A stretch of DNA of 63,820 nt, filler included, from Myxococcota bacterium (GTDB lineage Bacteria; Myxococcota_C; UBA6777): the NCBI GenBank assembly GCA_023150835.1. It is 4 parts of 4 records of this genome, joined end to end, with 100 filler letters (N's around TTAATTAATTAA, not from the genome) between each part and the next. Parts side by side here need not be neighbours in the genome. Positions count along the whole stretch, not along the records: positions 19,125 to 37,686 come from JAKLKB010000135.1; 3 more parts are not named here. One strand, 5' to 3'. The translations under genes were made by a program, and so were the position numbers. The notes below the pieces were generated by a model. It was not told where the DNA came from, ran no database searches, and worked only from the letters and a program-made list of their open reading frames with translations. Positions 10,297 through 29,522 of the stretch are shown in pieces; the stretch's first letter is position 1; each line of letters opens with the position of its first letter.

Positions 10297-10305
10297 TCGA
10301 AAGCA

Positions 10306-11697: not shown

Positions 11698-13422
11698 ATG
11701 GGAGAATCATTTGACGTCGACTTTGCGGTGGTAGGTTCGGGGTTTGGGGGATCGGTGTCGGCGTTGCGGTTGAGCGAAAAAGGCTACAGCGTGGCGGTGT
11801 TTGAGCAGGGCAAGCGTTTTCGGGCGCAGGACTATGCGGAGACGAATTGGGATGTTCGGCGGTTTTTGTGGTTGCCGCAGGCTGGGTGTATGGGGATTTT
11901 TCGGATGACGTTGTTGTCCGATGTGTTTGTGTTGTCGGGTGCGGGGGTGGGTGGGGGATCGTTGGTGTATGCGAATACCTTGTACGTTCCGCCAGAGTCG
12001 TTTTTTTCAGCGGCGCAGTGGCCGAAAGATATCGATTGGAAGGGCGAGTTGCTGCCGCATTATCGGATGGCGCAGTATATGTTGGGCGTGACGAGGAACA
12101 TTTACGAAGGAGAGGCGGATCGCCTGTTGCAGCAGGCGGCGGAGGAGTTGGGAAAAGGCGACACCTTTGTGAAAACACCTGTGGGTGTGTACTTTGGTCA
12201 TGCGGAAAAGACCGAGCCGGATCCGTATTTTGGAGGGGCAGGGCCGGAGCGGACGGGTTGTAATTTCTGTGGTGGTTGTATGGTGGGATGTCGTTTTGGG
12301 GCGAAGAATACGCTCGACAAGAACTATTTGTACCTTGCGGAAAAGCTTGGGTGTACGATCCATCCCGAGCGAACGGTCTCGGATGTTCGGGCATTGGAAG
12401 GTGGGGGGTATGAGATCGTGCATCGGCGTTCAGGCTCGTGGCTGCGCCGAGATGTCAAAGTGACACGTGCGCGCAATGTGGTCCTTTCTGCGGGGGTGTT
12501 GGGTACGGTCAAGCTTTTGTTTGAAGCGCGAGAGCGAGGTTCTTTGCCGAAGGTGTCGCCGTTTCTTGGGGAGCAGGTTCGTACAAACAGCGAAGCGATC
12601 TTGGGAGTGAGCGATACTCGCGAAGGCATCGATCACAGCAAGGGGATCGCGATCACGTCTTCGGTGCATGTCGATGATCATACGCATATCGAAGTGGTGC
12701 GTTATAGTAAAGGCAGCGATCTGATCGGTCGGATCGCGACGTTGATGACGGATGGAGGGCCGGGGCGATGGCGTCCTTGGGAGTGGGTGAAGACGGCAGC
12801 AAGCCACCCGCGCAAGTTTTTGTCGACGTTGTGGCCCTTTGGTTGGGCGCAAAGAACCTTTGTGTTGTTGGTGATGCAAACGCTTGATAACGCGGTGGGT
12901 TTGCGGATGCGCCGTTCGTGGCGGACGTTGTGGGGGCGAGGATTGGATACGGTGATGCCGAAAGACGGAGAAGCGATCCCGACCTACATTCCGCTAGGAA
13001 ACCAAGTCGCTCGCTCGATCGCACACAAAACCAACGGTGTTCCGCTGTCATCGATCCCCGAAGTGCTGCTGAATGTTCCGACAACAGCGCATATCTTGGG
13101 AGGATCGGTGATCGGTGATTCGGCGGCAACGGGGGTGATCGACGCCAATCACGAAGTCTTTGGTCACAAAGGGTTGTATGTATGCGATGGTTCGGCGGTT
13201 CCTGCCAACTTGGGCGTCAATCCGAGCCTGACCATCACCGCGATGACAGAGCGAGCGATGAGCAAGATCCCCGTCAAGGAAGGGGCCACCTATCGGCCCG
13301 CGATCGAACCCGCATGGACAGAGGCGCGAATTGCTGCGATCGAGAAACGGTGGGCGTTCCACCAGAGCCCCAATGTCTACCTCCCCGTCTCCGAACAAGC
13401 CGAACCATCGGAGAATGGATAA
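11698..13422 (+). CDS. GMC family oxidoreductase (cholesterol oxidase-like)
   Basis: GSGFGG FAD motif, GVGGGSLVYAN, CxxCxxCxxxC (CNFCGGCMVGC), TAHILGG, ANLGVNPSLTITAMTERAM. Confidence 0.88.
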   Translation: MGESFDVDFAVVGSGFGGSVSALRLSEKGYSVAVFEQGKRFRAQDYAETNWDVRRFLWLPQAGCMGIFRMTLLSDVFVLSGAGVGGGSLVYANTLYVPPESFFSAAQWPKDIDWKGELLPHYRMAQYMLGVTRNIYEGEADRLLQQAAEELGKGDTFVKTPVGVYFGHAEKTEPDPYFGGAGPERTGCNFCGGCMVGCRFGAKNTLDKNYLYLAEKLGCTIHPERTVSDVRALEGGGYEIVHRRSGSWLRRDVKVTRARNVVLSAGVLGTVKLLFEARERGSLPKVSPFLGEQVRTNSEAILGVSDTREGIDHSKGIAITSSVHVDDHTHIEVVRYSKGSDLIGRIATLMTDGGPGRWRPWEWVKTAASHPRKFLSTLWPFGWAQRTFVLLVMQTLDNAVGLRMRRSWRTLWGRGLDTVMPKDGEAIPTYIPLGNQVARSIAHKTNGVPLSSIPEVLLNVPTTAHILGGSVIGDSAATGVIDANHEVFGHKGLYVCDGSAVPANLGVNPSLTITAMTERAMSKIPVKEGATYRPAIEPAWTEARIAAIEKRWAFHQSPNVYLPVSEQAEPSENG

Positions 13423-13688
13423 GGACTCGTACGATATCCGAGTGGTATGTACATAGGGGGGCTGCCCCTACATCGTTCGATCACACCATGCACATTCGCC
13501 GCGAAAATGGCGAAAGGCACGGGGGCTGCTCCTATGTCGTTCGATCACACCGCGAGCGGATTTCGTACAAGGACCCAATCGCTGCTTTTGGGGAGAGTTG
13601 ACGGGGCCTCAAGGGGTTGACAACGAGGCCGTTTTGTGCAGAGTGACTTTTTTGGGCATGAAGTCAAAGCAGCGTTGGACGTATTTGA

Positions 13689-13813
13689 CAAAAACCCCCG
13701 TGTTCGGGCTGGTTCGAGCGACAGAGTCGTCTGTTTGAAAAACAGTGAGCGTTTCGCTCAACACGGGGTCAAGGGAGCCGAGCTCCCTTGTGGGGCGTGG
13801 GGTGAAACCCCAC
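13689..13813 (+). repeat. Copy of ~120-bp dispersed double-hairpin element
   Basis: AAAAACCCCCGTGTTCG...ACACGGGGTCAAGGGAGCCGAGCTCCCTTGTGGGGCGTGGGGTGAAACCCCAC. Confidence 0.7.
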
Positions 13814-14051
13814 CCAGCTATTCCCACAAATCAGTCCGATGTTGTTGGCGTTTTTGTGGGCCGTGATCTTTTGGTGTTTGCGGCGTAAGGTTATCGAGAG
13901 TTGTTGCGAAAAAGTGACGGCAGGTAGCGCGGGTTGCCTTGTGGCGGGGGTTTGCTTGGTGCTGTGTGTTTTTTGATTGGAAGCGATACAGAGGGCGGAT
14001 GGAGCGGGTTGATCCGAAGAGGCAACCGAGGCTCGGAAAGAGGAGGTCTTG

Positions 14052-14345
14052 ATGTTGAAACGATCCCATTCATCATCGCTAGAGCGTATGCGTTGGGGAG
14101 GTGCGGAAGAATGGAGCGCGACGAAGGCGTGTGGGGTGGTGATGTTGTCGCATCACGACAGCGTGTTGTCTTCGGAGGCCGAAGAAGTCGAAGGGGACGG
14201 GCGGACGATGTGGGAGGTGGCAGGTCGGGGAGTGATCCGATCAAGAAATCTGCAATGGTTGTTGACCGAAGAATTCTGGGGACCAGTACTGGGTTGGGAA
14301 GTAGAGAGCAAGCGGCGCGAAGCAGAGGACGGCTCGTTGGTGTGA
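14052..14345 (+). CDS. Possible small hypothetical protein
   Basis: AGGAGG Shine-Dalgarno immediately before TTG-ATG; no recognisable domain. Confidence 0.3.
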   Translation: MLKRSHSSSLERMRWGGAEEWSATKACGVVMLSHHDSVLSSEAEEVEGDGRTMWEVAGRGVIRSRNLQWLLTEEFWGPVLGWEVESKRREAEDGSLV

Positions 14346-14574
14346 TCGCGGTGTGCGATACAGAAGGAAGTGGGGGGAGGCATTTTGTTTTTAAAAGCGG
14401 GGTGCTTTATATTGGGGGGCGTGTCAAGTGAACTCCCGACATCTTGGAGGGAGAAACGCGGAAAGTGCGCGACGAAGGGCCAAGGATAGCTTTTTTTTTT
14501 GCGTGGCGTTGGTTTGTTTGGGAAGAAGAAAAACGAGCCATCGTATCGGTTCCGCAGACAACGGGGATGCGTTC

Positions 14575-15519
14575 ATGTCCGTGTATCGGGTGCATTACAA
14601 AGCGATGAAAGCTTTGTTGGGCCAAAGCACCATTCAAACGAGTGAAGGGTGTCCATTTGCGCCGATGTTGCGGGGGCAGATGGAAGATCTGACGATGTAT
14701 CGGGAGGCATTGGAGGGCCAAGGCTTGTTGGTCGGGGGAGGGGGGTTGTGTGAGGAGGCGCGGGAAGCGCTCGAAGTGATCGCACGTCCGACGGATTGTT
14801 TGGCGGTGACCTCTTTTGCGTCGGGGAATCGCCAGCGGGTGACGTATTTTTTGCGGGAGGGTCGTGCGGTGGTGGCGGGATTTGATCACCAAGAGACGTG
14901 CAACTTTTCAAAACCTGTGTTGTATGGGCGTCTTGCAGAGAATTTGGCGCGACAGCTTGCAGGAACAAAGGGTGGTGGAGCGCAGAGACCGTTTCGGATG
15001 AATCCCGCGCTACTGCGAGTGTTTGCGCAGTGGATGGATGAAGGGATGCGCTTACAACCACCGCGTGAGGCAAGCGAGGCGTATCGGCGTTCTGCGTTGA
15101 GCAAGCAGATGATCTTGCGGCAGATTTCGGAGCAGGTGTCGAGCCGCAGCGCGGAAGCGTTGTGTGTGGCGTTGTTGGAGCTTCGGTTGTTGGTGGAAGA
15201 AGGGGCGTTGTGTTGGTTTGGGCCGGAGTTTTCGTTGTGGTACGAGGCTTTGTCTGGGGATGAGCGGGTGGAGTTGCAGTTGCGGGTGTTGCCGTTGCGG
15301 GATCAGGTGATGCCAGAGCGGGGGATGATCTTTGTGGGAGAAGCGGGTCAGCGTTTGATGTTGTGGTCGCAAGGCGAGCGCGAGGTGATCTGGGCTTTTC
15401 GTGCAGAAGAGGTGTTGGCCCAAGCGTTGTTGCGGGATCTGCTGGGCTGTCGGGAGGTTTCGGACAAAGAGATGTTGGAGGGATGGATGTCGAGAGGGGT
15501 GATGTTGGATGTCCTCTGA
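14575..15519 (+). CDS. Hypothetical protein
   Basis: Long ORF with local codon style, overlapping the next gene's start (operon-like); ATG 14575 chosen. Confidence 0.7.
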   Translation: MSVYRVHYKAMKALLGQSTIQTSEGCPFAPMLRGQMEDLTMYREALEGQGLLVGGGGLCEEAREALEVIARPTDCLAVTSFASGNRQRVTYFLREGRAVVAGFDHQETCNFSKPVLYGRLAENLARQLAGTKGGGAQRPFRMNPALLRVFAQWMDEGMRLQPPREASEAYRRSALSKQMILRQISEQVSSRSAEALCVALLELRLLVEEGALCWFGPEFSLWYEALSGDERVELQLRVLPLRDQVMPERGMIFVGEAGQRLMLWSQGEREVIWAFRAEEVLAQALLRDLLGCREVSDKEMLEGWMSRGVMLDVL

Positions 15520-16426
15520 GCGCAAAGTGGTGGGAGAGACGGTTCCGTGGTTGCGGTTGGTGTTGGTGTTGGCAGCGGGGGTGTTGGCGGTGTCCTCGTC
15601 AGCGATCTTGGTACGTTTGGCCAAGCAAGCTCCGCCGTTGAGCATCGCTTTTTGGCGAGTGACGTTGGCGAGTGTGTTGTTGCTGCCGCTGTGGTTTTCG
15701 GTGTCAAGGCGGCGCGAAGTCACGCTGTTGTCGGTGGATCAGCGTTGGCGCTTGCTGTTATCGGGGGTGTGTTTGGGGGTGCATTTTGGGGCGTGGATCA
15801 GCAGTTTGTCGTACACAAGTGTCGCGGCGTCGGTGTTGTTGGTGACGACGAATCCGATCTGGGTGGGGTTGATGTCGCCGTTGGTTGTGGGGGAACGGTT
15901 GTCGGGTGGGGCGTGGTTGGGTGTGGGGCTTGCGCTGTTGGGGGCGGGGATCGTGGCGTTGGATAGCGAGATCGCAGGATCGCCGAACCCGTTGTTGGGG
16001 AATGGCTTAGCGTTGTTGGGGGCGGTGGCGGCGAGCGGATATCTGTTGTTGGGGCGGCGTGTTCGTGCGCAGTTGGATGTGTGGTCGTATGCGTCGGCGA
16101 CGCTGGCGGGTGCGTGGTGTGTTTTGTTGATCATGGCGATGGTTTGGGGTGTTCCGTTGTGGGGATTTGGGTGGGAGGTGTGGGGGTTGTTTGGGGCGAT
16201 GGCTTTGTTGCCGCAGATGGTGGGGCATAATGCGATGAGTTGGAGTTTGCGGTATGTGCGTGCGGATGTGATCGCGGTGGTGTTGTTGTTGGAGCCGATC
16301 GGTGCGGCGTTGTTGGCTTGGTTGATCTTGTCGGAAGCACCGAGTCGTGGGGTCTGGTGGGGTGGAGCGGTGTTGTTGGGGAGTGTTGCGTGGGTGAGTC
16401 TCCAAGCTCGAAAGCCTTCGCGTTAA
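15509..16426 (+). CDS. DMT/EamA family transporter
   Basis: About 10 hydrophobic segments; HFGAWISSLSYTSVAASVLLVTTNPIW and GHNAMSWSL..LLEPIGA motifs. Confidence 0.9.
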   Translation: MSSERKVVGETVPWLRLVLVLAAGVLAVSSSAILVRLAKQAPPLSIAFWRVTLASVLLLPLWFSVSRRREVTLLSVDQRWRLLLSGVCLGVHFGAWISSLSYTSVAASVLLVTTNPIWVGLMSPLVVGERLSGGAWLGVGLALLGAGIVALDSEIAGSPNPLLGNGLALLGAVAASGYLLLGRRVRAQLDVWSYASATLAGAWCVLLIMAMVWGVPLWGFGWEVWGLFGAMALLPQMVGHNAMSWSLRYVRADVIAVVLLLEPIGAALLAWLILSEAPSRGVWWGGAVLLGSVAWVSLQARKPSR

Positions 16427-17547
16427 GAAGCGATCTGGAGGTGGGAGGTGGTTTGAAGGAAGGCTTGGAGGGTGGTGCGTTGGGTGGGGAGTCCGAAGAG
16501 GTCGAGGATGGCGGCGATCTCGTGAGAGATCGTCCAGAGGTGTTTGGTGTCGACGAGAGCGTGGAGGATCTCGCGTTGGAGGGGTTCGAGTCGTGCGGCT
16601 TCGGCGGGAGATTCGAGGCGAGAGAGATCAAGGAGTGTGAAGGTCATGTGGACAGCGCTGTAGGGGTCAACGATCGGGAGCAGATCGAGAAGGCGGGGGA
16701 TCACGAATTCGGGGACGCCCTCGCCAAGATGGCAAAGCAAGCGGCTGAGATCGCCGACCGTATCGGATTCGGCCCAAGGGAGAGTTGCGTAAAGGTCGGA
16801 TACTTCGGAGAGCGTGAGTGTGTGCATCAGGATGCGGAGAGCGTTGCGGGAGGGTTGTTGGGGATTTTGGCGGGTGAGCGAAGTGGCGGCGGCGAGACGG
16901 ACAAGTGCGGGGTGGGAGGAAACAAGGTAGCTTTCGAGCAAAGGTTCGAGCAGGATATCGTCGATCTCAAGGACACCGAGCGCAAAGAGGATGCTTGCGA
17001 GGACACAGGGGTGATCTTCGAGGAGCAGGCGTTGTTGGAGGGCGTGTTGGATGCGCTTGCTTTCAAGGGGGAAGCAGGCGAGCAGAAAGGCCGCGTGAAC
17101 ACGCAAAGCGGCTTGGGGTGCGTGGAGGCATCGGAGATAGAGGTCCATTCCTTTTCGGGCTTCTTCGTGGGTGCGTTGGAGCCATGCGGTATGGAGGGAT
17201 GGAGGTTCTTCGCACCCGGGGAGGAGCAGCGCCATGCGGCGATGTTGGGGGATCTCGTAAGTGTTGGGGCAAGTTTCGCCTGTGGCGAGATGGGCGAGGA
17301 GCAACAAGAGTTCTTCTTTGTCTTGGACACCGGGGTCTTGGAGCATCTCGATCAGGAAAGGGATGGAGACCGCGCTGGCTTCGAACACAAGGCCATGATG
17401 CCAGAGGGCTTCGTAACACCAAGAGAGAGCTTCGAGGCGTTCGTGTTGGAGGGGGGAGCGCAAGGCATGAAGGTGAAGGGGAAGGTCGGCTGCGTGTCCG
17501 TGGGCGTGCGTCATTTTTTCCCAAGCGATGGGTTGCGTGATCTGCAT
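16423..17547 (-). CDS. HEAT-repeat-like helical protein
   Basis: Start at ATG 17547 (MQITQPIAWEKMTHAHGHAADLP..L..L); LWHHG.VFEASAVSIPFL and repeated VRLAAA-type helices. Confidence 0.7.
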   Translation of the reverse strand: MQITQPIAWEKMTHAHGHAADLPLHLHALRSPLQHERLEALSWCYEALWHHGLVFEASAVSIPFLIEMLQDPGVQDKEELLLLLAHLATGETCPNTYEIPQHRRMALLLPGCEEPPSLHTAWLQRTHEEARKGMDLYLRCLHAPQAALRVHAAFLLACFPLESKRIQHALQQRLLLEDHPCVLASILFALGVLEIDDILLEPLLESYLVSSHPALVRLAAATSLTRQNPQQPSRNALRILMHTLTLSEVSDLYATLPWAESDTVGDLSRLLCHLGEGVPEFVIPRLLDLLPIVDPYSAVHMTFTLLDLSRLESPAEAARLEPLQREILHALVDTKHLWTISHEIAAILDLFGLPTQRTTLQAFLQTTSHLQIAS

Positions 17548-17693
17548 GGTGTCGTCCTTTCCTGTCGATCGGTAAGGTGGGGGTTGTTTGTGGCGACTTG
17601 AGAAGGGGTTGTACTTTGTGGTTGTGACGGATGTTGACACGCAAGGGATCGAGCAGGTTGTGAGAGGTGGATGCTTGAGTCCGAGGAGGGGGC

Positions 17694-18146
17694 GTGTTAG
17701 AAAAGTGGCCGTTGGATGGAGGTTCAAGTGATATCGAGGACGCAAGATCGGGAGAAAGATGGATGTTGTCATCAGAGGCGTATCTTCAGGCTCGTCAGAA
17801 AGCGCGTTATCACGTCCAAGTTCAGATCGAGCGGGTGGGGTTTCCTCCTCGGATGCCGGGAGAGGCCGAGGTGGGGGGGAAAGTCGTGCAGGTGTTTCGT
17901 GCGGATGGCTCGGAGTTGCGTTGTGGTGATCCGATCCGTTTTCGGTTGAGTGTTGCGGCCTACAACGAAGCGATTCCGCCCGAAGATGGGGTGTGGTGGT
18001 TGCCTGCGGATGCGATCTATGAGGGGGCCTGTATTGAGGCTTTTTTGAATGGCGAAGCGCCCGATTGTGCGGTCGCTTTGTGGCAAGTGACGATCTTGGA
18101 GGGGGCTCCTTCGCCACCTTGGATGAGCGAGGATGTATTGGACTGA
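17694..18146 (+). CDS. Hypothetical protein
   Basis: 150-aa ORF with GAGGAGG upstream, divergent from the HEAT gene; fills the gap between genes. Confidence 0.55.
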   Translation: MLEKWPLDGGSSDIEDARSGERWMLSSEAYLQARQKARYHVQVQIERVGFPPRMPGEAEVGGKVVQVFRADGSELRCGDPIRFRLSVAAYNEAIPPEDGVWWLPADAIYEGACIEAFLNGEAPDCAVALWQVTILEGAPSPPWMSEDVLD

Positions 18147-18330
18147 TCGGATTGATCGGATTGATCGGATTGAACCGACTGATCGGATTGAACCGACTGA
18201 TCGGACTGATCGGACTGATCGGACTGATCGGACTGATCGGATTGAACGGATTGAACGGGCTGATCGGACTGATCGGACTGATCGGATTGATCGGACTGAT
18301 CGGATTGATCGGACTGATCGGACTGATCGG
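18140..18330. repeat. 9-bp tandem repeat (GATCGGACT / GATCGGATT, ~21 units)
   Basis: Directly visible; lies between two converging genes. Confidence 0.95.
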
Positions 18331-18344
18331 TGGGGTGGGCAGCG

Positions 18345-18767
18345 TCAGGGAAGAGAGAGGGACATCTTTTGATGGGGGATGCCGGCCTCTTCGTAGACGG
18401 GGCCGTCGGTGGTGAAGCCAAAGCGTTCGTAAAAGCCGATGGCATGGGTCTGTGCGCTCAGGTAAACTGTTGGCAGGCGCTGTTGTTGTGCGTGGGCAAC
18501 CAAGGCTTCGAGCAGCCATCGTCCGAACCCACAGGAGCGCCAAGGTTTTCGGACGGCCATGCGACCGATCTTTCCGCTTGGAAGGAGGCGTGCGCATGCG
18601 ATGGGTTCGCCTTGTGCGGAGCGCAGGAGCAGATGGAGTGCGGTATGATCGTGTTCGTCGATCTCGATCTCGGGGGGGACGTGTTGTTCTTCGATGAAGA
18701 CTTCGCGTCGAACCAAATAGAGGTCGGCTTGATCGTCGGGCCAGCGGGCGATATGGAGTGTGGTCAT
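18345..18767 (-). CDS. GNAT family N-acetyltransferase (YjcF/ElaA-like)
   Basis: VRREVFIEEQHVP.EIEIDEHD, KIGRMAVRKPWR..GFG, LSAQTHAIGFYERFGF, EEAGIPH motifs. Confidence 0.9.
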   Translation of the reverse strand: MTTLHIARWPDDQADLYLVRREVFIEEQHVPPEIEIDEHDHTALHLLLRSAQGEPIACARLLPSGKIGRMAVRKPWRSCGFGRWLLEALVAHAQQQRLPTVYLSAQTHAIGFYERFGFTTDGPVYEEAGIPHQKMSLSLP

Positions 18768-19024
18768 GGTTTTGGGCCGCCGTGTCGGGGTGATTGTTGC
18801 GATGTCTTGTACGATATCCGAGTGATGTACACAGCAAAGGAGAGTACGTAGACGCCCTATGATCGGGCAGACACAGGGGTCTGCCCCCATACGCGCCTTG
18901 TTAAGCGCTTGTCGGCCCCCCACCCCAGCCCTCCCCCGTGAACAGGGGAGGGAGTGAAAGTCGGAGTCAGCGAGGTTTTGGGTTTCCATGCCGCACGCTG
19001 TTTGCACGAGAGATCGTCTTTGCC

Positions 19025-19124: not shown

Positions 19125-19460
19125 GCCTTCCAAGGTTTGATGGGTGGCGGTCAAGCCGGTGGCGCAGGCGGCCTCGGTGGCGCAGCAAACATGGGCCAGT
19201 TCCCCCAAATGCCCAACCCCGTCAATCCCACAGGAAACCTCGGCAACAACATCATGGGTCCCCAACAAGGTGCCATGAACCAACTCCAAGGTCTCCAAAA
19301 CCAGATCGCTGGTACCGATATCGGCGCACTCAACAAAAACCCCGCCGGCATGATGAAGCTCCAAGAAGATATGCAAAAAATGCAAGAGATGTTTGAGACC
19401 ATGTCCAAGATCTCCAAAAAACTCCACGACATCACCATGTCCATCCTCCGCAACATCTGA
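19125..19460 (+). CDS. Gly/Gln-rich protein with T3SS needle (SctF)-like C-terminus, copy 1 (5'-truncated by contig edge)
   Basis: Nearly identical to the 3' part of 20472-21011; ends NPAGMMKLQEDMQKMQEMFETMSKISKKLHDITMSILRNI. Confidence 0.75.
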   Translation, partial: AFQGLMGGGQAGGAGGLGGAANMGQFPQMPNPVNPTGNLGNNIMGPQQGAMNQLQGLQNQIAGTDIGALNKNPAGMMKLQEDMQKMQEMFETMSKISKKLHDITMSILRNI

Positions 19461-19480
19461 TCCCTCTCTGCGGCCCCTTC

Positions 19481-19513
19481 AAAGCCTCCTTCCCTTCGGG
19501 TTGGGGGCTTTTT
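19481..19513 (+). terminator. Rho-independent terminator
   Basis: AAAGCCTCC-TT-CCCTTCGGG-TT-GGGGGCTTTTT; C(UUCG)G loop plus U-tract. Confidence 0.85.
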
Positions 19514-19598
19514 GCATTTCTCTTCCCCCCGCTTCTTTCCAACCCGCGCATCCCGCGATACTTCCTCAACCACCAAAGCCCACCATCCATCCGCCGAC

Positions 19599-19721
19599 GT
19601 GGAGCGCTGCCCCAAACCCCGCAAGGAAGCGCGGCTGCCTTGATCCCGTATCGGCGAACAGAGCGCAGGCGCTCAACACAACGACTCTGTCGCTTGCGCG
19701 TTCGCGAACACGGCTTTCTTT
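19599..19721 (-). repeat. Degenerate copy of ~120-bp double-hairpin element
   Basis: GCCCCAAACCCCGCAAGG..CCTTGATCCCGTATCGGCGAA..CAACGACTCT.TCGCTTG matches the 60859 copy. Confidence 0.6.
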
Positions 19722-20080
19722 GGGACTCTGCGGCACTCCTGCTCAAATCAGAGGGTGTCTAAAGGAAGAAAAACCCCAAGGAATCGGGAGGACAGGCATC
19801 GCGTCAGCCTCGGAGCAGACGCAAACAAGGTGTGGTTCGCTGTTCTGCCTCGTGCCTACGGTCGCTTCGATGGCCCTATTCTTTCCCCTCGCGGCAGCTG
19901 CGTGGCTTTGCGAGCGTCGCAAGGAGAGGGGTGAGGGCGACGCGATCTGTACCCCTGTCAGGGAGAGGGCGGGGTTGGGGAGGGTGAGGGGACATCACAA
20001 GACGTCCATTCCTTCGATGTTTCTGTCTACCAGTCCAAAAGCTCTCGCTATGTTAGATACCCTCTCAGATCAGCAACCCA

Positions 20081-20148
20081 TGATCACGAAGGCGATCACA
20101 CGATCACGAAAGCGATCACACGATCACGAAAGCGATCACGCGATCACG
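20081..20148. repeat. 20-bp tandem repeat (GATCACGAAAGCGATCACAC) x~3
   Basis: Directly visible. Confidence 0.8.
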
Positions 20149-20471
20149 GCTCGAATAGAAAAGTGTTTTGCCCATGTATCGGTCTTTTTTGTATCAAGTG
20201 CATGATCTCGTGCAGTCGATCAACGAACGCTTAAACCCTTGCAACACAAGATCCCCGAAAAATAAAAAATCAACGACGACGGGCCTTTAGAACATTTTTT
20301 GAAAAGGTCGAAAATTATCCGCAACACCCAAAAGGCACAAAGCGATACTAGAGTTGAAAGCTGAGGGAAAAAACACTCCCCGCAAAACAACTCACAACTC
20401 AACCCAAGGTTGGGTTACAATAAAACAGTTCGCCTCGTTGTTGAGGCCAAACAAATCAAAGGAGATTCATC

Positions 20472-21011
20472 ATGCTTCCACTCGCAGGTATCGCAGCAAA
20501 ATTCGCAGCCCCTATCCTCGGTAAAGTGCTCGGTGGCGTTCTTGGTGGTGCAGGTGGCGGCGCAGGCGGCCTTCTCGGTGGTATCCTCGGCGGCGGTGGT
20601 CAAGGTCTCATGGGCGGCATCATGAAAATGCTCGGTGGTGCCAATCCCTTCGGCATGATCAACCAAGCCATGCAAGCCTTCCAAGGCTTGATGGGTGGCA
20701 ATCAAGCAGGTGGCGCAGGCGGCCTTGGTGGCGCAGCAAACATGGGCCAGTTCCCCCAAATGCCCAACCCCGTCAATCCCACAGGAAACCTCGGCAACAA
20801 CATCATGGGTCCCCAACAAGGTGCCATGAACCAACTCCAAGGTCTCCAAAACCAGATCGCTGGTACTGATATCGGCGCACTCAACAAAAACCCCGCTGGC
20901 ATGATGAAGCTCCAAGAAGATATGCAAAAAATGCAAGAGATGTTTGAGACCATGTCCAAGATCTCCAAAAAACTCCACGACATCACCATGTCCATCCTCC
21001 GCAACATCTGA
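20472..21011 (+). CDS. Gly/Gln-rich protein with T3SS needle (SctF)-like C-terminus, copy 2
   Basis: AAAGGAG Shine-Dalgarno; Gly-rich amphipathic N-half; C-terminal 42 aa align with the PrgI/YscF C-terminal helix. Confidence 0.78.
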   Translation: MLPLAGIAAKFAAPILGKVLGGVLGGAGGGAGGLLGGILGGGGQGLMGGIMKMLGGANPFGMINQAMQAFQGLMGGNQAGGAGGLGGAANMGQFPQMPNPVNPTGNLGNNIMGPQQGAMNQLQGLQNQIAGTDIGALNKNPAGMMKLQEDMQKMQEMFETMSKISKKLHDITMSILRNI

Positions 21012-21033
21012 TCCCTCTCTGCGGCCCCTTCTC

Positions 21034-21066
21034 AAAGCCTCCTTCCCTTCGGGTTGGGGGCTTTTT
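21034..21066 (+). terminator. Rho-independent terminator
   Basis: Same hairpin and U-tract as 19481-19513. Confidence 0.85.
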
Positions 21067-21464
21067 GCATTTCTCTTCCCCCCTCCCGCTTCTAATTCTT
21101 TCTCTTCCCCCGCTTCTCTCTAATACGAGACCCATCGAGCCGCGCTCCCTGCGGGGTGTGCGAACTCTCTCCCCATCAAACAATCTGTTGTGATCGAGAA
21201 TCTTTGCGATCATCCTTGATGGGCCTTCTTTTCGTTTGCGATCTCTTTTGGGCCTTCTTTTCGTTTGTGAGCATCCACTCTGCGCGATCATGATCCAAGG
21301 ATGCGTTGGGGATATGGATAACTCTTTGATATTGAACCGATATTAGAAAATCTAAAAAAACAAGAAACGGATCACACACACAGACGATACTTATCTCGAA
21401 ACAAACACGGTGGGCAGCGTCCTCACCGACACAAAACAAAAACAACTTTGTAAGGAGAACGAAT

Positions 21465-21983
21465 ATGCTAGGAGCACTCGGCGGAATCACCAACCAAATC
21501 CTCAAAAGCGCAGTGGGCGGCGGCTTTGGCGCGCTCGGTGGCATCGCAGGCCAGATGGCACAAAGCCTTGTCGGCAGCATCGCAGGTGGCCTCGGTGGCA
21601 TGGGTGGAATGGGCGGCGCAGGCGGTGGGTTTGGTATCCTCAATCAAGCCATGCAAGCTTTCCAAGGTCTCTTTGGCGGCATGAACCCCGGAAACGTGGG
21701 TGGTGCGCTCGGTGGTGGCGGTTTCCCCCAATTCCCCAACCCCGTCAACCCCACAGGCAATCTCGGCGGCGGTATCATGGGTCCCCAACAAGGCGCCATG
21801 AACCAACTCCAAGGTCTCCAAAACCAGATCGCTGGTACCGATATCGGCGCACTCAACAAAAACCCCGCTGGCATGATGAAGCTCCAAGAAGATATGCAAA
21901 AAATGCAAGAGATGTTTGAAACCATGTCCAAGATCTCCAAAAAGCTCCACGACATCACCATGTCCATCCTCCGCAACATCTGA
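21465..21983 (+). CDS. Gly/Gln-rich protein with T3SS needle (SctF)-like C-terminus, copy 3
   Basis: TAAGGAG Shine-Dalgarno; divergent N-half; C-terminal ~69 aa identical to the other copies. Confidence 0.78.
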   Translation: MLGALGGITNQILKSAVGGGFGALGGIAGQMAQSLVGSIAGGLGGMGGMGGAGGGFGILNQAMQAFQGLFGGMNPGNVGGALGGGGFPQFPNPVNPTGNLGGGIMGPQQGAMNQLQGLQNQIAGTDIGALNKNPAGMMKLQEDMQKMQEMFETMSKISKKLHDITMSILRNI

Positions 21984-22008
21984 TCCCTCCCCTCCCTTCG
22001 GCCTCTTC

Positions 22009-22041
22009 AAAGCCTCCTTCCCTTCGGGTTGGAGGCTTTTT
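22009..22041 (+). terminator. Rho-independent terminator
   Basis: AAAGCCTCC/GGAGGCTTT stem, UUCG loop, U-tract. Confidence 0.85.
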
Positions 22042-22222
22042 GCGTCTCCGCTGTGGCCCACGAATCGGGGCTTTTTGCGTCTCCGCTGTGGCCCACGAAT
22101 CGGGGCTTTTCGCCTCTCTGCTCCTCCTCACAACCACTTTTCGCTTTTTTCCACACGCCTGCTCTTGTACACTCGTTTCTTCTGAAATGTGCTTTTGCGA
22201 GCCTGTTGTTCGGAGAGATCGG

Positions 22223-23221
22223 ATGTCACAAGAATTTTTTCGCCTTGGCGCGATCAACCTTGCGCCTTGTTGGGAGCCGATGATCCACCCTTCGATCCGC
22301 GCCCTAACCTTCCCACCCGTCCCCCAAGTCGATTGCAACAATTGCCGCATGGTGAATGCGCGCCTTTTTCCTGCGCATGTGAAATGTTGTAGTCGCACCC
22401 CTGATCTCCCTAATTTTTTGATCGGCTCGTTGCTTGTCGAAGGCCCCGAAACGCATGGAAAACAGGTGGTTCGCGATTGGATTGTCCAACGTCGAACCGA
22501 TCCGTTGTATGCGCTGGTTCCGCCTCAACGCCGCCAAGAAGAATCGGGTCTTCATTCCTTTGAGGCTTGGCCTGTTTGCCCGATGTACAAGGAGGGTGGT
22601 TGTTCGATCTACGCCCACCGACCGTATGTTTGCATGGGATACCATTGCTTTTTTCCCGATCCTCCCGAACTGTACGCTTTTTGGAATAGCCTTTCTTCTT
22701 TGTTGGCTTTGATCTCTGTGTGCGCCTCGCAGTTTCTTGCGATCCGATGTGGTCTCGATACGCAAAGCTTTCGCCGCGCATGGGGCGCGTTTCCCAACGA
22801 AGAAGAGGCGTGGCCGGACAGTCAACAGCTCGATCCCAACCTGCATCAGCAACTGTGGGCATCTCTTGGCGCACCTTCCGAATTTTACCAACGCTGTTAT
22901 CGCTACATCCTCGATCACCGAGAGACCATCCTTTACGAACTGGATCAATTCCGCCGCGAGCAGTTGATCCGCTTCCTTGCGGTCGAAGATCACCCCGATC
23001 CACTACGCGAACACGTGATCCGTCAACAACCCACCGAACCCTCGCCGATCGCCCCTGAACCAGAGGATCACAAACGATACATGAAAGAACTCATCCTTGG
23101 GCCTGATAAACATCGCTGGACTTTTCGCGAGATCGAAGGCCACGTCCTCTGGTATTATCACCGCGTCTTTGCAAAGTCCCATCCCTCCGATGTCTTCTCA
23201 CCCGACGCACCCAATCCTTAA
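22223..23221 (+). CDS. YkgJ / CxxCxxCC family cysteine-cluster (putative Fe-S/Zn) protein
   Basis: CNNC...KCC and CPMY...GCSIYAHRPYVCMGYHC pattern; start ATG 22223 after GGAG. Confidence 0.75.
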   Translation: MSQEFFRLGAINLAPCWEPMIHPSIRALTFPPVPQVDCNNCRMVNARLFPAHVKCCSRTPDLPNFLIGSLLVEGPETHGKQVVRDWIVQRRTDPLYALVPPQRRQEESGLHSFEAWPVCPMYKEGGCSIYAHRPYVCMGYHCFFPDPPELYAFWNSLSSLLALISVCASQFLAIRCGLDTQSFRRAWGAFPNEEEAWPDSQQLDPNLHQQLWASLGAPSEFYQRCYRYILDHRETILYELDQFRREQLIRFLAVEDHPDPLREHVIRQQPTEPSPIAPEPEDHKRYMKELILGPDKHRWTFREIEGHVLWYYHRVFAKSHPSDVFSPDAPNP

Positions 23222-23247
23222 ATCTTCTCCACACAGGAAGGATCGTC

Positions 23248-24006
23248 GTGATGTTGTTTCTCCAAGATCCCGCCGAATCAAAGCTACAACGGCTCTTTCA
23301 ACGCGTTGTCTCCCATCTTCACCGCCTCACTTTTTCGCTCACCTTTCCTCTCTACGAATGGCTGTATCTTCTCTGGTCTTGCCCCGAGATGCTTCCGTCC
23401 CTTTGGCGGATCTTGAGTTTTTCGTGGGGGCGTGATCCCTATACCGCGATCACGCGGATGCCACACGATCTGCGCGAACACCGTCATCCCGATGATCTGG
23501 TGTACGGCGAGATCATCCTCCCCACGTTTGATCGGATCTTGCGATCTCTTCAACTCGGAGCAACCGATCGCTTTGTCGATCTCGGATGTGGACGGGGCCG
23601 GCTTGTGATGATGGCCGCTGCAAGGGGGATTCGAGCGCATGGCATCGAGCTTGTCCCGCTGCATCTTCGCTGCGCCAAGTATGCCGCTTCACCCTATCTT
23701 CCGCTGGCCTCCTTTGAACAAGCCGATATCCTTCAGGCTGATCTTTCACAAGCGACCGTCTTTTGGGCTTCTGGAACTTGTTGGAGCGATCCCCTTCGCG
23801 AGCAGATCGCTGCGCGTATCGCGCAACTTCTCCCAAATACCCGCGTGATCTCCGTCTCCTCGCCGCTTCCTCACCCTCAACTGGAGACCCTTTGCACCTT
23901 CTACGGTTGGACCACATGGGGCCGCGACGCCTTCTTTCTTCAACGTGTCCTCCCCAAACCCCAAGAAGCCCTTCCACCCGCATCTTTCCCATCACTCGGG
24001 ACTTGA
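23248..24006 (+). CDS. Class I SAM-dependent methyltransferase, DOT1-like
   Basis: LVYGEI...L.L...DRFVDLGCGRGRLV...AHGIELVP...FEQADIL, matching the YGE..F.DLG.G.G pattern of DOT1-like enzymes. Confidence 0.8.
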   Translation: MMLFLQDPAESKLQRLFQRVVSHLHRLTFSLTFPLYEWLYLLWSCPEMLPSLWRILSFSWGRDPYTAITRMPHDLREHRHPDDLVYGEIILPTFDRILRSLQLGATDRFVDLGCGRGRLVMMAAARGIRAHGIELVPLHLRCAKYAASPYLPLASFEQADILQADLSQATVFWASGTCWSDPLREQIAARIAQLLPNTRVISVSSPLPHPQLETLCTFYGWTTWGRDAFFLQRVLPKPQEALPPASFPSLGT

Positions 24007-24309
24007 CTGCACAAACCCTCACATGACCTCTTGCATACTTGAGTTCAAAACGTGCGAGAACTCTACAGGTCGAACCCGTCAACAAACTCCAACACGACAT
24101 CTTGCGCGCTGGCGATGCTGCTTTTGCGACATCTCGTCAAACACACCGCAGGAAAATCTCTTCGAGAAAGATTTGCGCCCCACATCAAAAAGCCCTAGAT
24201 TGCTCGTGTTTGTGCGATACCCCAGACGCTTTTTGCGTGTGACATATCGCGGCATGGATCTTGTTGTCGGCGCGTGGGCCTCTCGATCTCGGCGCATTTG
24301 CCTTCAAAC

Positions 24310-24490
24310 GTAGGGGCAGCCCCCTGTGGCTGCCCAGCCATCGCGTGGGCCTCTCGATCTCGGCGCGTTTGCCTATCGCAAGAGGCCGTCTTTTGGAGGC
24401 GATCTTTGAGTGATACGAAAGCCGCCCGTTGTTTGATCGCAATAGGTCGGGGCAGCCCCCTGTGGCTGCCCAACCACAGGGCGTCTACGT
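24310..24490. repeat. Cluster of GTAG-type REP palindromes
   Basis: GTAGGGGCAGCCCCCTGTGGCTGCCC at 24310 and GGGGCAGCCCCCTGTGGCTGCCC..AGGGCGTCTAC at 24449-24489; same unit at 44760. Confidence 0.7.
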
Positions 24491-24527
24491 ACTGCCTTTT
24501 GTGTACACTTCACTCGGATATCGCATT

Positions 24528-24543
24528 CGGCACTCGAATCGCT
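24528..24543 (+). promoter_or_regulatory. Candidate sigma-54 (-24/-12) promoter for gspC
   Basis: CGGCACTCGAATCGCT = GG-N10-GC with GGCAC core, ~40 bp before the ATG. Confidence 0.4.
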
Positions 24544-24581
24544 GTTTTTCTGTCTTGCCCCGTTGATCGGAGCTATTCGTC

Positions 24582-25589
24582 ATGGTCAAATTTTTCTTCG
24601 GACAACATTTTTGGATCTTTATCGTGTTCTTTCTCACCAGCGCGAGCTACCTCAGCGCTCTGAGCGTCAATCATCTCTTGCGTCTTTCGATCAAGCCCGC
24701 TGCAAGCGCCCCATTGATCGCAAGTGAGGACGGCGATCTGCAACTCGCCAAAACCCGCAAAGATGCACGCGTGATCCTTCAAAGCAACAACATCTTCGAC
24801 CCCAACGCCAAACCCATCACTCCCCAAGAAGCCGCAGCCATCGACAAATCCAAAGAGAAAAAACCAACCCCCAAAAAGATCGATGAGTTCGGTTGCCCTC
24901 CCGTCGACGAACAACGCGAATACCCTGAGTCCCAGATCCGAAACCTCTGGATCAAAGGAACCAGCGTCGCAAGCGATCCCCGCTACAATCTCGCCGCCTT
25001 CTATCTGGATGTCGAAAACGCCAAGCCCGTGTATGACCAAAAAGCACCTTGGCAAAAAACCACCCGCACCGTCGAGATCTTTCGGGTCGGCGATACCCTC
25101 GCCACGACACCTGCAAAGCTGTGTTTTATCGGTGCGCGCCGCGTGGTGTTGATCCATCGCAATACCCTCGAACAGATCTCCCTCGATCCCAAATCCAAAA
25201 AAGGTGCAAAACCCAAGCTATTCGGGGCTTTTGGAGTCGGGCAAACCGAAGAGGAATTCAAAGCCGATCGGGTCGATGATCGCACCATCCAACGCTCTCT
25301 TGTTCAAGACTGGCTCGCCAACCCCATGCAGCACGCCATGAGCGCTCGCGTCATGCCACACTACGAAGGCGGTCAATCCGCAGGCTTTCGCCTCGTTTGG
25401 ATCAAAGAAGGCTCGATTTATTCCAAACTTGGCCTCCAAAGCGGCGATGTTCTCCAGCAGATCAACGGCAAAACTCTCTCCGTCGGTAGCGCCCTCGGCC
25501 TTATGTCCCAACTCCCCTTCGCCAAAAATCTCTCCGTCAACCTCATCCGCCAAGGCGTCCGCCAATCCATCAACTTCAATATCAAATGA
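24582..25589 (+). CDS. gspC: Type II secretion system protein C-like (N-terminal TM, HR domain, C-terminal PDZ)
   Basis: N-terminal TM, ILQSNNIFDP, ARVMPHYEGG...GFRLVWIKEGSIYSKLGLQSGDVLQQING (myxobacterial GspC-type PDZ). Confidence 0.75.
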   Translation: MVKFFFGQHFWIFIVFFLTSASYLSALSVNHLLRLSIKPAASAPLIASEDGDLQLAKTRKDARVILQSNNIFDPNAKPITPQEAAAIDKSKEKKPTPKKIDEFGCPPVDEQREYPESQIRNLWIKGTSVASDPRYNLAAFYLDVENAKPVYDQKAPWQKTTRTVEIFRVGDTLATTPAKLCFIGARRVVLIHRNTLEQISLDPKSKKGAKPKLFGAFGVGQTEEEFKADRVDDRTIQRSLVQDWLANPMQHAMSARVMPHYEGGQSAGFRLVWIKEGSIYSKLGLQSGDVLQQINGKTLSVGSALGLMSQLPFAKNLSVNLIRQGVRQSINFNIK

Positions 25590-25725
25590 TCTTTCCCCCT
25601 TTCAGATATCACAAAACACCCTCAAAAATCTGAGGCTGCTTGAGTCCTTCCACCGCGTTTCGAACCCTGCCACAAGAAACACATCTGTCTGATAAACAAA
25701 AGAAAAACGACGTGATCTTTCCCTT

Positions 25726-25741
25726 CGGTATATGCCTTGCG
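25726..25741 (+). promoter_or_regulatory. Candidate sigma-54 (-24/-12) promoter for the beta-propeller lipoprotein
   Basis: CGGTATATGCCTTGCG = GG-N10-GC with TTGC. Confidence 0.4.
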
Positions 25742-25816
25742 TTCCTGCCTTTTTGACAAGACTCCCCACACCTGATTTTTTGCAGGGAACCCCCCTCAAG
25801 CCAAGGAGACGAAAGC

Positions 25817-28800
25817 ATGAAACCGAAACGTATCTTTCAACAATGGACGCTGACCCTCAGCGCCGCGCTGTTGGGCCTCTGGCTCAGCGCATGTACTGGC
25901 GAGATCCCCGATCCCAACGAGACCCCTACCCCCGGCCAAAAAGAATTCACCACCGAAGAACTCGGCAACAACAGCAACGGTCGCTCTTTCGACGGAGCCT
26001 CCCCCGAAGGCCAAGCCGCACCCAACGCAGGAACCGCTGAACCCGGAGCCAACGCCGATGCCAAAGAAGGCGCTCCTTCCGGTCGTACCGGCACCGTCGA
26101 AGAAGCCGATCTCTACCGCATGAGCGGAAACCTCCTGTTTTACCTCAACACCTACAAAGGTTTGACGGTGTTCGATGTTGCTGATCCCAAACAGCCCAAG
26201 AAGATCTCCAGTCTTCCCGTCTTTGGGTATCCCATCGAAATGTTTGTCAACAAAAACATCGTCTATGCCCTCGTGCGTGACGCACTCTATATGTTGAACG
26301 TCAACGGCAAGTTCGAATTCCACCGCCGTCACGTCTCTCAACTCGTCACCATCGACATCAGCAACCCCCAAACCCCTGTCGTCCTCCAACGCTTCGATAT
26401 CAAAGGCCAACTCCGCGAAGGCGTCTCTCGCAAGATCGATGACACCGTGTATGTCGTCTCTTATACGCCCCGCTGGTACTGGTGGGGCTGGTCCTACGAG
26501 CAACTAGAACGCAAAGAACAAGTCACCGTCTACTCGTTCAACGTCGCAAACCCCACCAACATCACGATGGTTCAGCAACTTGACCTGCTCAAAGAAACCT
26601 CCACCAGCAAAAACTGGGAAGACAAAGGAACCCAATACAGCGAGTCTTCCAACTTTAGCGATATCACCCTCTCCGCAACTTCCAACACCCTTCTCGTCGG
26701 CGAACAATGGTACCACTACAAATCCGCCTACAATCGCAACGGTAGCACCACCAACTGGTGCGAACGCAGCCAATACGAAAACTGGCAAGCGATGAAGATC
26801 AACATCGTCGATATCAGCGATCCCAAGGGCACAATCAAACTCCATACCCGCTTTGAATATCGCGGCCACATGGGCGACCAGTTCAAACAAACCTATGTCT
26901 ATGACGACACCACCAAAAAAGGCACCTACTACGGGATCTTCCAACGCAACGAGTGGAAGCGTGACTCCAACAACTGCAACTCCGAGCGCGTCGTCCGTAA
27001 CACCCTTGTCTCCGTCGATATCACCGATGGCAGCAACCCCGTTGTCCTGCACTCCCTTGACTTCGGCAAACCCAACGAAACCGTTCGTGGCAGCACCTAC
27101 GACGAAAACCGCCGCGTCGTGTACGCCATCACCGCCGTCAACACCGATCCCCTCTACGCGATCAGCTTTGCCGATCCCAAAAACCTCAAAGTCCTCTCCG
27201 CTGTGGACGGACTCAGCGGCGATATGAACGTCTTCCGCTTTGCCGATAGCACCCGCAACTTCTTGATGGGCATCGGACGCGATACCTCTTCCGCTTGTAC
27301 CGGCTTTGACCAAGATTCCCGTAGCACCAACATCGCCGTCAGCATCATGGATGTTCGCGATCTCAACAAAGTCCGCCTCGTTCAACGCAAGTGCGTCGCC
27401 ATCAAAGGCGCACAATGGGTCCATTCCGAACTCAACTGGAACCTCGATCAAGCCCACAAGATGCTCGGTATGTATTCCGACAAAGACGTCAACTTGATCA
27501 CCCTCCCCGTCAGCTACTACTCCCAAAATAGCACCAACGGCTGGTGGTATTCCGAATACAAAAGCGCCATCGGTATTATGCGTTGGGATCTGTCCAAGTA
27601 CGACGACACCAAAGATGAAAAACAACAAAATGTCCTCGAAAACATCGCCTCGATGGAACACCCCAAAGGTAGCGTAAAACGCACCATCATCTTCAAACAC
27701 CAAACCCTCAACGAGCGGATGGTTCTGAACCTCTCCGATACCCACCTCTCCTTGATCGACCTGTCCAACCTCAATAGCCCGAGCTTGCTCTCGACCTTTG
27801 AGTTGGCCCCCTATATCCGCACCGTCTATCGCTTCGGAAAACACCTCGTCGAACAAGTCAATCTTGGCCAATCTTACGACGATTACAACGAATTCCGTGT
27901 CAAAGAGATCGGCTCCACCAACATCAACGACGCCAGCGTCTTGGCCTCCTTCACCGTCGGCAAGATCCAAAGCGTGATCCGTTGGAAAGATTACCTCGTT
28001 CTCTTCCGCTACTACCAAGATCCCAGCAAAACCAACAGCAAAGGTTATCCCGAATACGATTACAACAAATCCGAACTCGTCCTCTACAACTTCTCGAACC
28101 CCCTCAAGCCCGTCATGGCCGGATCTACCGTGATCCCCCGCGCCTTCTATCCCTACTATTACTTCTACTGCGGCTGGTTCGATATGCGCTTCGGATTCGA
28201 TTCGTACTGGTATCCCTACTACAACGGCACTCGTGGTTTCGTCAGCACCGGAACAGGTATCTCTACCATACTCTTCCAATACGACTACCAAAGCCGCACC
28301 AGCAAGCAGTTGCTCTTGACGCTGGACTTTACCAATCCCGCAAAACCCACCTACCAAGAAACCACTATCCCCACCAACAACAACCGTCAGTACATGAGCC
28401 TCGTCTCGATGGACGACAACACCTTCTACATCACCAACCGCGAGCAGATCGGCACCCGCAACCAAAACAACCAAGGCTTCACCATCTTCCGCTATTATGC
28501 AGAGCGTTGGGTGCGCGGAGCCAACGGTTGGGCTTCCTCAGGTCAGATCAACCTCCCCGGTCGCCTCAGCAAAGCATGGGCATACAACGGCAAAGTCAAG
28601 CTCCTTACCAACGATCAGTCCTACATCCTCCGCCAAGTTAAAAACGGCAACAACACCTACAACCAATACCAATCGGTCTTCCGCCTCCACCTGCTTGAGC
28701 AAAGCCAAGACGCCAAGTGGGCCGTCCTTCAAGCCTCCCGTAGCTTCCTGAGCTGGCAACTCAAAGACATGATCGCCGATGGCGACCGCCTCTATCTCAA

Positions 28801-29161: not shown

Positions 29162-29245
29162 TCTCCCCCATCTACCGTCCTCTTCCCTCTCCTCTAGCCT
29201 TTCTCGTCTGGTTTCTCTCCCTCAACTGTTTTTTTACTTTGGTGG

Positions 29246-29370
29246 TGCGGGGGTGGAACCCCACGCCCCGCCATAGACTTGCGCCCCTTGACCCCGTATC
29301 GGCGGGGCGAATAGACGTTTTTTCAAACCAACGTCTGCGCCGCTTGAAGTGTCGCAAACATGGGGGTTTT
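29246..29370 (-). repeat. Copy of ~120-bp double-hairpin element
   Basis: CCCCACGCCCC..CCCCTTGACCCCGTATCGGCG..CCAACG..CGCTTG..GGGGTTTT. Confidence 0.65.
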
Positions 29371-29522
29371 GGAAGGCGAGGGCTTGCATTCAGGGGGGGA
29401 GATGGTGATCTGCGATCCGAGTTTTTCGGGGAAGTGATCCGCGTGAGGCGGAGCAACGTAGACGGCTTGTCTTTCGCAATACAGCCGCGAAAACAAACGG
29501 CCCGAAAATACAGGAGGAATCC

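Follow-up and report, generated by a model that had tools for sequence, protein, structure and literature searches.

A tandem array of genes for divergent SctF-like proteins with glycine-rich N-terminal extensions in a Myxococcota genome

The needle subunits found in type III secretion systems (T3SS), the SctF proteins EscF, PrgI, MxiH, and YscF, are small, helical, and cysteine-free. They form a two-helix hairpin whose N–P turn leads into M-L-x-L-Q and which terminates in I-I/L-x-x-I; they are about 70–90 residues long and are encoded by one gene together with the T3SS export genes. Neighbouring genes encode co-chaperones of the SctE/SctG type that hold the subunits in the monomeric state until the T3SS exports them and they polymerise as a hollow helical needle. 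In the solved needles (PrgI, MxiH), the N-terminus lies outside. Other T3SS-exported cysteine-free proteins, such as EspA, HrpA, and the glycine-rich harpins, serve to lengthen the needle, to decorate it, or to act on the envelopes of targets. The myxobacterial systems are described differently: according to Abby and Rocha 2012 (PMC3459982), the 'Myxo' T3SS has no SctF, secretin, or FliG, and an ancestral SctF is inferred to have been lost in the Myxo branch. PMC10433427 and PMC12075869 call the T3SS* of M. xanthus needle-less and ask by which route its substrates leave the cell. Here, we describe three tandem genes (W1, W2, and W3) for SctF-like proteins in a 63,820-nucleotide stretch of DNA, the window, from a Myxococcota bacterium (assembly GCA_023150835.1).

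The window consists of four joined contigs (1–19024, 19125–37686, 37787–56144, and 56245–63820) separated by linkers of the form N44-TTAATTAATTAA-N44. The three open reading frames (ORFs) open the second contig (Table 1), and W1 starts at the joint. A first-pass annotation, made from the sequence alone, had seen here a tandem array of at least three genes, the first cut by the contig edge; it had also reported a near-identical UUCG terminator for each gene, strong Shine–Dalgarno sequences on the two complete genes, and an identical C-terminal part of about 69 residues behind divergent N-terminal parts. All of these observations were reproduced. The last 69 residues (IMGPQQGA...MSILRNI) were identical at 69 of 69 positions in the three copies, and the corresponding DNA (the final ~210 nt) varied at a few synonymous sites only. 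This near-identity extended ~70 nt beyond the stop codon, through the terminator, which has the form AAAGCCUCCUUCCCUUCGGGUUGG[G/A]GGCUUU followed by a U run; a terminator scan agreed for all three copies. AGGAG boxes at 20460–20464 (W2) and 21453–21457 (W3) lie ~7 nt 5' of the ATG codons. W2 begins with a Gly/Leu-rich segment (residues 1–63); an NQAMQAFQG helix and an FPQMPNPVNP linker then lead to the SctF-like hairpin (residues 115–179). In the segments preceding the NQAMQAFQG helix, W2 and W3 share no more than 46% identity. The array proteins contain no cysteine and no signal peptide. The array is not a chance feature, because the same family occurs in five tandem copies in the related genome G001.

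Pfam PF09392 (T3SS_needle_F) was the sole family match common to W1–W3 (E = 5.2e-5 to 3.5e-4, profile positions 14–71 of 71) and the only Pfam match of W2. NCBIfam TIGR02105 (SctF) matched both proteins tested (E = 2.7e-4 and 7.1e-4). Across the window proteins and the best relative, E-values ranged from 1.5e-5 to 7e-4. For a profile–profile comparison by hhalign, a family C-terminal profile of 11 sequences was aligned to a profile of four SctF sequences (EscF from the locus of enterocyte effacement of E. coli O157 and three plasmid-borne genes annotated sctF). The comparison gave a probability of 74.8 and an E-value of 2.6e-5 over 60 columns spanning the whole hairpin, with both helices, the N–P turn, and the C-terminal I-I/L-x-x-I in register. 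The same C-terminal profile yielded P-values of 1.1e-3 with EscF alone, 0.12 with EscI, and 0.38 with EspA. A profile of the family also matched a 43-residue needle fragment (PDB 7y6c_F, E = 1.3e-4).

The AlphaFold2 model of the C-terminal domain was a helical hairpin (helices 5–22 and 33–70) with a predicted local distance difference test (pLDDT) score of 73.9. In a Foldseek search with this model, ranks 1–5 and 7 were taken by needle or inner-rod chains (2jow, 8fvu_U with a template modelling (TM) score of 0.73, 2x9c, 6rwy_L, 2v6l, and 2ca5). A complex prediction for four copies of residues 105–179 scored 0.04 (mark 0.42), which is too low for a reading in either direction. In the ESM Atlas, the closest clusters (score 0.91) consisted of hypothetical proteins of ~200 residues, with PF09392 in 10–17% of their members. 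Taken together, Pfam, NCBIfam, hhalign, and the predicted hairpin support the view that the C-terminal ~65 residues are a divergent SctF-type hairpin. The needle-like reading of the C-terminus in the first-pass annotation thus holds, at scores under the curated family thresholds.

Related genomes placed the family next to the export gate. The phylum-rank taxonomic group that contains G001 (a Myxococcales metagenome-assembled genome (MAG); loci L001, L006, and L011) consists of only five genomes, G001–G005, including the Myxococcota MAG G002 (L002 and L003), and the family was present in all five. In L001, the five copies (168–186 residues) lie directly 3' of genes for SctQ (FliM/FliN-type), a FliO-like protein, SctR, a sctS-sized ORF, SctT, and SctU; the identity of the sctS-sized ORF rests on its position and on 90% conservation between L001 and L003. 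The same gene order was found in L003, with sctU at 8559–9617 and the first needle-like gene starting at 9821. In G005, sctU is located at C35:36049–37071 and the match of a copy at 37764–37952. A copy directly follows sctU in each of the three genomes that have both genes on one contig (G001, G002, and G005), even though the members keeping this adjacency share only 35–45% identity in the domain. In G003, the contig with sctU terminates ~700 nt from this gene, and the needle-like fragments occupy contig termini, which is what repeats that interrupt assembly would produce; G004 yielded no sctU.

The DNA of W1 is 94% identical to the L003 copy immediately after sctU, and L002, another G002 contig, shares 90–94% DNA identity with the window. 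The window and L001 also agree in the order of genes 3' of the array, where an unknown protein is followed by a DOT1-like methyltransferase, another unknown protein, a beta-propeller protein, and HflX. Most likely, the window array is a set of three copies that come directly after sctU, and its contig broke within the repeat. The description of the genes as stand-alone in the first-pass annotation did not survive this comparison.

A genome-wide search for sctRSTUV and sctN, suggested with the first-pass annotation, was run in the relatives, and SctR, SctT, SctU, SctV, and SctN were found in G001. SctV is encoded alone on contig C20. On contig C19 (L011), the order is a tetratricopeptide repeat (TPR) gene of chaperone size, a FliA/WhiG-like sigma factor, SctI-like, SctJ, FliG-like, SctL, SctN, SctO (E = 7e-23), and a FliK/SctP-like protein. 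The TPR protein has 148 residues, the size of a translocator chaperone. With the non-flagellar (NF) T3SS models, SctV (hrcV) scored 810.6 bits (cutoff 692), against 682 with FlhA (cutoff 772); SctN scored 611.3 (604.75), against 599 with FliI clade 2 (629.8); SctR scored 222 (208.6), against 196.9 with FliP (217.45); and SctQ scored 109.8 (100.8), with no flagellar figure. By these NCBIfam scores, the G001 system classifies as a non-flagellar T3SS. Pfam detected no flagellin or rod-protein domain (Flagellin_N, Flg_bb_rod) in G001 or in the array proteins. No secretin was found in the G001 T3SS loci (contigs C6, C19, and C20); the sole match of this genome is on contig C21.

The SctI-like gene adjoins sctJ (L011, 10659–11156) and matched PF17001 with E = 3.4e-6 and TIGR02497 with 21.6 bits (cutoff 23.45). 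It belongs to a second hairpin family, ending in ...SNxxKNRxxTAxNSIRNIN (L016, L026, L028, and L011), which occurs in G001, G002, G003, and G005. The FliG-like gene after sctJ scored above the Pfam cutoffs for FliG_M (36.7 bits) and FliG_C (29.5 bits), and the FliA/WhiG-like sigma factor scored 156.8 bits with TIGR02479, under the cutoff of 189.6. We noted several flagellum-type parts in this T3SS (L011, 8582–16958; L001, 143–2272), namely the FliG-like and FliO-like proteins, a FliM-like N-domain of SctQ, a FliK-type C-domain of the ruler, and the FliA/WhiG-like sigma factor. A 137-residue ORF 5' of the sigma gene was considered as a FlgM-like anti-sigma factor and dropped, as Pfam gave no support. 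In the same genome, an IS605 OrfB/TnpB-type gene (L006, 7980–9158, minus strand) precedes the sctQ operon by ~9 kb.

Compared with the M. xanthus T3SS* through published descriptions, the G001 system looks like the secretin-less 'Myxo' type. Both belong to Myxococcota organisms, contain SctI, SctJ, SctQ, SctRSTUV, SctN, and SctL with a TPR chaperone-like gene in the loci, lack a secretin in these loci, and have their genes scattered over several loci. The first-pass annotation had named the Myxococcus system as one described as needle-less, and PMC3459982 and PMC12075869 say so. In these two papers and in PMC10433427, the Myxo T3SS and T3SS* are described without a SctF homologue, whereas here SctF-like genes occur in three to five copies and in all five genomes of the group. 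The systems also differ in FliG, which the Myxo type lacks according to PMC3459982, whereas a FliG-like protein is encoded in G001. The literature we searched contains no description of SctF-like genes in Myxococcota, although supplementary gene tables, which lay outside the search, might list them.

The family appears to be rare in sequence collections. Phmmer with residues 60–179 against 1.84 billion representatives returned five proteins at E ≤ 1e-3, among them P0005 (1563 residues, 7 stretches), which was left out of the analysis. Among 5.8 billion proteins, a profile search recovered roughly a dozen clear members (E ≤ 4e-14). Most members have four parts: a Gly/Ala/Leu-rich N-terminus, an AFQG helix, a Pro/Gly/Met linker of the FPQMP type, and the C-terminal hairpin. 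The first parts are missing from P0006, P0007, and P0010, which form a shorter subtype (141–143 residues). We also observed a large metagenomic family (P0013, P0015, P0020, P0027, P0029, P0035, P0043, and P0048–P0062), which has only the last ~45 residues in common with the window proteins.

The two halves of the proteins follow different patterns. The C-terminal domains group by genome, with 100% identity within the window, 91–100% within G001, and 81–85% between the two; at one position, an I/V difference sets every copy of one genome apart from the close relative. The N-terminal parts group by type. In these parts, W2 is 72–78% identical to copies G1a and G1d, and W3 is 69% identical to G1e and 100% to K3. 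Within types, the identity between genomes is 69–78%, as compared with 27–47% between types. From these alignments, the C-terminal, presumably polymerising domain is under concerted evolution, and the distinct N-terminal modules are under purifying selection; the pattern does not look like the hypervariability of antigenic variation. The variable, flagellin-like surface region that the first-pass annotation had proposed calls for revision, since the N-terminal parts are conserved types. Flagellin arrays under FliA/sigma-28 nevertheless share several features with this one: tandem, monocistronic, apparently highly expressed paralogs of an axial subunit, a –10 box apparently of the CGATA type, a FliA/WhiG-like sigma gene within the T3SS cluster, and concerted evolution of the part that would polymerise. 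They differ in that the array proteins have no flagellin domains and that the N-terminus, not a central domain, is the differing part and is conserved by type between genomes.

Upstream of the genes, a bipartite motif, G[A/C/G]AAC[A/C/G]-N14–17-CGATAC, was located 85–130 nt before the ATG in all nine copies with upstream sequence (window, G001, and G002). Shuffled windows gave 0.28 matches, and the window itself contains one further match (32613–32586, minus strand). We take the CGATA box to resemble the –10 element of FliA/sigma-28. With a promoter-like motif, a strong Shine–Dalgarno sequence, and a terminator for each gene, the genes appear to be built for high expression, in line with the first-pass annotation. 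Clusters of CGATCA[CT] words occur 80–250 nt 5' of the promoter-like motifs, one before W2 (Table 1) and one of three words at 21190–21291, and similar words are present upstream of the G001 and G002 copies; they may be binding sites of a regulator. In other copies, the leader also forms hairpins, at places similar to those in W2 but with differing sequences. Control of the leaders by a CsrA-type regulator was discarded, as the hairpin loops of W2 and G1a contain no GGA motif by eye.

Several studies' metagenomes from activated sludge and wastewater contain the stretch, as do six RNA-library runs of four studies; the low-share runs X21–X24 were not counted. In all four runs whose contigs were examined, one from each study, W2 was covered at ≥99% identity. 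Three of these contigs start at 20369–20376, just 3' of the CGATAC box (20343–20348), which is a weak hint that they mark the 5' end of the W2 transcript. The spacers 5' of 20314 and 3' of ~21260 were uncovered in most runs, which carries no weight either way.

The explanation we favour, and consider reasonably probable, is that the array encodes exported subunits of the SctF family, which would use their common hairpin to polymerise on the SctI-like rod and so build a needle or filament. Each gene would be its own transcription unit, given the promoter-like motif, strong ribosome-binding site, and terminator observed for each. Because the CGATA box resembles the sigma-28 –10 element and a FliA/WhiG-like sigma factor is encoded in the T3SS cluster of the relative, the genes may be switched on by this factor in the manner of flagellin genes. 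The products would leave through the SctRSTUV gate, the genes of which lie directly upstream in the relatives. The identical helix–turn–helix hairpin would then assemble on the rod into a tube, with the FliK/SctP-like ruler setting the filament length. The ~110-residue N-terminal extension (Gly/Leu-rich segment, AFQG helix, and Pro/Gly/Asn linker) would be exposed on the tube exterior. Since the three N-terminal types are conserved between genomes, they are probably paralogs with distinct roles, such as different filament positions or surface properties, and gene conversion may prevent divergence of the polymerising domain, which would allow the types to assemble together.

Several findings weigh against this explanation. 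No hidden Markov model (HMM) score reaches a curated threshold: the window proteins score 21.1–23.8 bits with PF09392, the five G001 copies 24.1–27.7 (gathering score 29.4), and the TIGR02105 scores are 19.9–21.3 bits (cutoff 41.7). None of the five more divergent family members tested (P0006, P0008, P0009, P0011, and P0012) matched PF09392 at E ≤ 1. The Foldseek search produced no match at E ≤ 0.001, every E-value was above 0.1, and a helical hairpin is a common fold; the fold search used the C-terminal domain only, and the full-length 179-residue monomer model was poor (pLDDT 50.7). At 172 and 179 residues in the window and 168–186 in G001, the proteins are about twice as long as known SctF, owing to the Gly-rich extension. 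They are encoded by three to five tandem paralogs after sctU instead of one gene, each with its own promoter-like motif and terminator, and no needle co-chaperone gene of the SctE/SctG type was identified beside the array in the window or L001. The T3SS of the window's own organism is inferred from relatives, and no T3SS genes were found on the other contigs of the window. In addition, some members of the large family sharing the last ~45 residues carry Sec signal peptides, so this C-terminal helix is not exclusive to T3SS substrates. As to expression, the promoter-like motif was derived from the same sequences in which it was counted, which makes the count descriptive, and the RNA-library contigs are compatible with DNA carry-over.

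The proteins might be T3SS substrates other than the needle shaft, that is, pore formers similar to harpins or translocators whose N-terminus inserts into a target or outer membrane, or a distal tip or sheath, with the hairpin serving only to dock onto the channel or rod. The N-terminal 45–60 residues would suit such a role, being hydrophobic, glycine-zipper-like, nearly uncharged, and rich in Gly, Leu, Ile, and Met, with LGGxLGG repeats of period ~4 and only 3 Lys, and the conservation of the N-terminal types between genomes implies a function of their own. The G001 loci examined contain no noted translocon homologue and do contain the small TPR protein of translocator-chaperone size. The family profile also resembled the membrane-proximal region of herpesvirus gB at a non-significant level (E ~0.2). 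Against this, the Pfam glycine-zipper families were unmatched even at E ≤ 10, and the EspA comparison lends no support. The SctI-like rod and the ruler imply that some polymer is built, and the PF09392 search provided no other candidate for it in any of the five genomes: no protein exceeded the gathering score, the best matches in G001 and G002 were the array copies themselves, and further matches in G002, G003, and G004 were weak (E = 0.016–0.03). We regard the substrate or tip alternative as unlikely on balance. The subunits could also belong to the inner rod (SctI type) or to a hook-like adaptor instead of the distal needle, as SctI and SctF are related hairpin proteins and Foldseek rank 4 (6rwy_L) is an export-apparatus/inner-rod entry. 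A separate SctI-like gene already stands by sctJ in G001, with its family in three further genomes, hhalign favoured EscF over EscI, and a gene that is repeated several times, each time with its own promoter and terminator, would fit a subunit needed in high copy number; we take a rod or adaptor role to be very improbable.

The likeness to SctF could, in turn, be convergence of a Q/M-rich helix, if the products are abundant coiled-coil proteins that self-assemble and have no link with T3SS export, perhaps relatives of the Sec-signal family with the common C-terminal helix, in which case the adjacency to sctU would have no functional meaning. The subthreshold SctF scores are in accordance with this, and so is the large 'DDAQLANVDLQN...AMAIIRKIG' family: it has the last ~45 residues in common, three of the 14 sequences read start with signal-peptide-like N-termini, and none of the four members tested matched PF09392. 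The array proteins, however, have no signal peptide, and PF09392 is the best or only family match of the window proteins and recurs in the nearest ESM Atlas clusters. The hhalign alignment extends beyond the last helix to both helices and the turn, and the adjacency to sctU was kept in three of three genomes despite the low domain identity. We therefore consider convergence quite improbable, and a divergent SctF-type subunit, exported and polymerising, remains our preferred explanation.

Further features were noted around the array. Downstream of the W3 terminator (22046–22110), a ~33-nt unit ending in ...CCCACGAATCGGGGCTTTT occurs twice in tandem, each unit resembling a second terminator-type hairpin. 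The beta-propeller gene syntenic with G001 (25817–29161, plus strand) encodes a secreted-looking 1114-residue beta-propeller/LVIVD protein, and a 1601-residue secreted-looking repeat protein with 10 Stig1-like and several NHL repeats is encoded at 31094–35902 (minus strand). The end of the first contig (18065–18445) is a short-period tandem repeat with repetitive ORFs in several frames (SDQSDQ, IGLIGL).

Table 1. Coordinates of the needle-like genes and their putative expression signals in the window
Feature	Position	Strand	Remarks
W1, first needle-like gene, 3' part	19125–19460	+	last 111 codons plus stop; contig joint cuts 5' part
W1 intrinsic terminator	19481–19515	+	CUUCGG-loop hairpin plus U run, –19.4 kcal/mol
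CGATCA[CT] word cluster	20093–20146	+	six words, 20-nt unit x3; 5' of W2 promoter-like motif
W2 promoter-like bipartite motif	20321–20348	+	GCAACA-N16-CGATAC; CGATAC box at 20343–20348
W2 5' leader	20349–20471	+	two stem-loops (–34.4 kcal/mol, z –3.28), AGGAG at 20460–20464
W2, needle-like gene, 179 amino acids	20472–21011	+	ORF, family matches
W2 intrinsic terminator	21034–21068	+	–21.2 kcal/mol
W3 promoter-like bipartite motif	21364–21390	+	GAAACG-N15-CGATAC; motif scan
W3, needle-like gene, 172 amino acids	21465–21983	+	N-terminal type GQMAQSLVGSIAGG, unlike W2; AAGGAG box 21452–21457
W3 intrinsic terminator	22009–22043	+	–20.3 kcal/mol

The interest of these genes for the evolution of the T3SS and for the 'needle-less' predation T3SS depends on phylogeny and experiments. 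A bolder and rather doubtful extension of our explanation is that the secretin-less, flagellum-like 'Myxo' T3SS is not inherently needle-less. It would here build a composite filament of three SctF paralogs, whose membrane-active Gly-rich N-termini coat or tip the tube, so that a single family would supply the needle and also the translocon used on bacterial prey. Such a system would stand, as a living intermediate, between the flagellum and the injectisome, retaining the ancestral SctF inferred by Abby and Rocha. Presence in sludge and wastewater metagenomes and RNA libraries makes metaproteomics and the imaging of enrichment cultures feasible, and the family profile can be used to search the Myxococcus genomes again. 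The array would also exemplify, in nature, how a single polymerising core can bear several conserved modules for the surface or the tip. As a needle-like family fixed behind sctU in a secretin-less system, it is a candidate for the missing axial component of the 'needle-less' T3SS.

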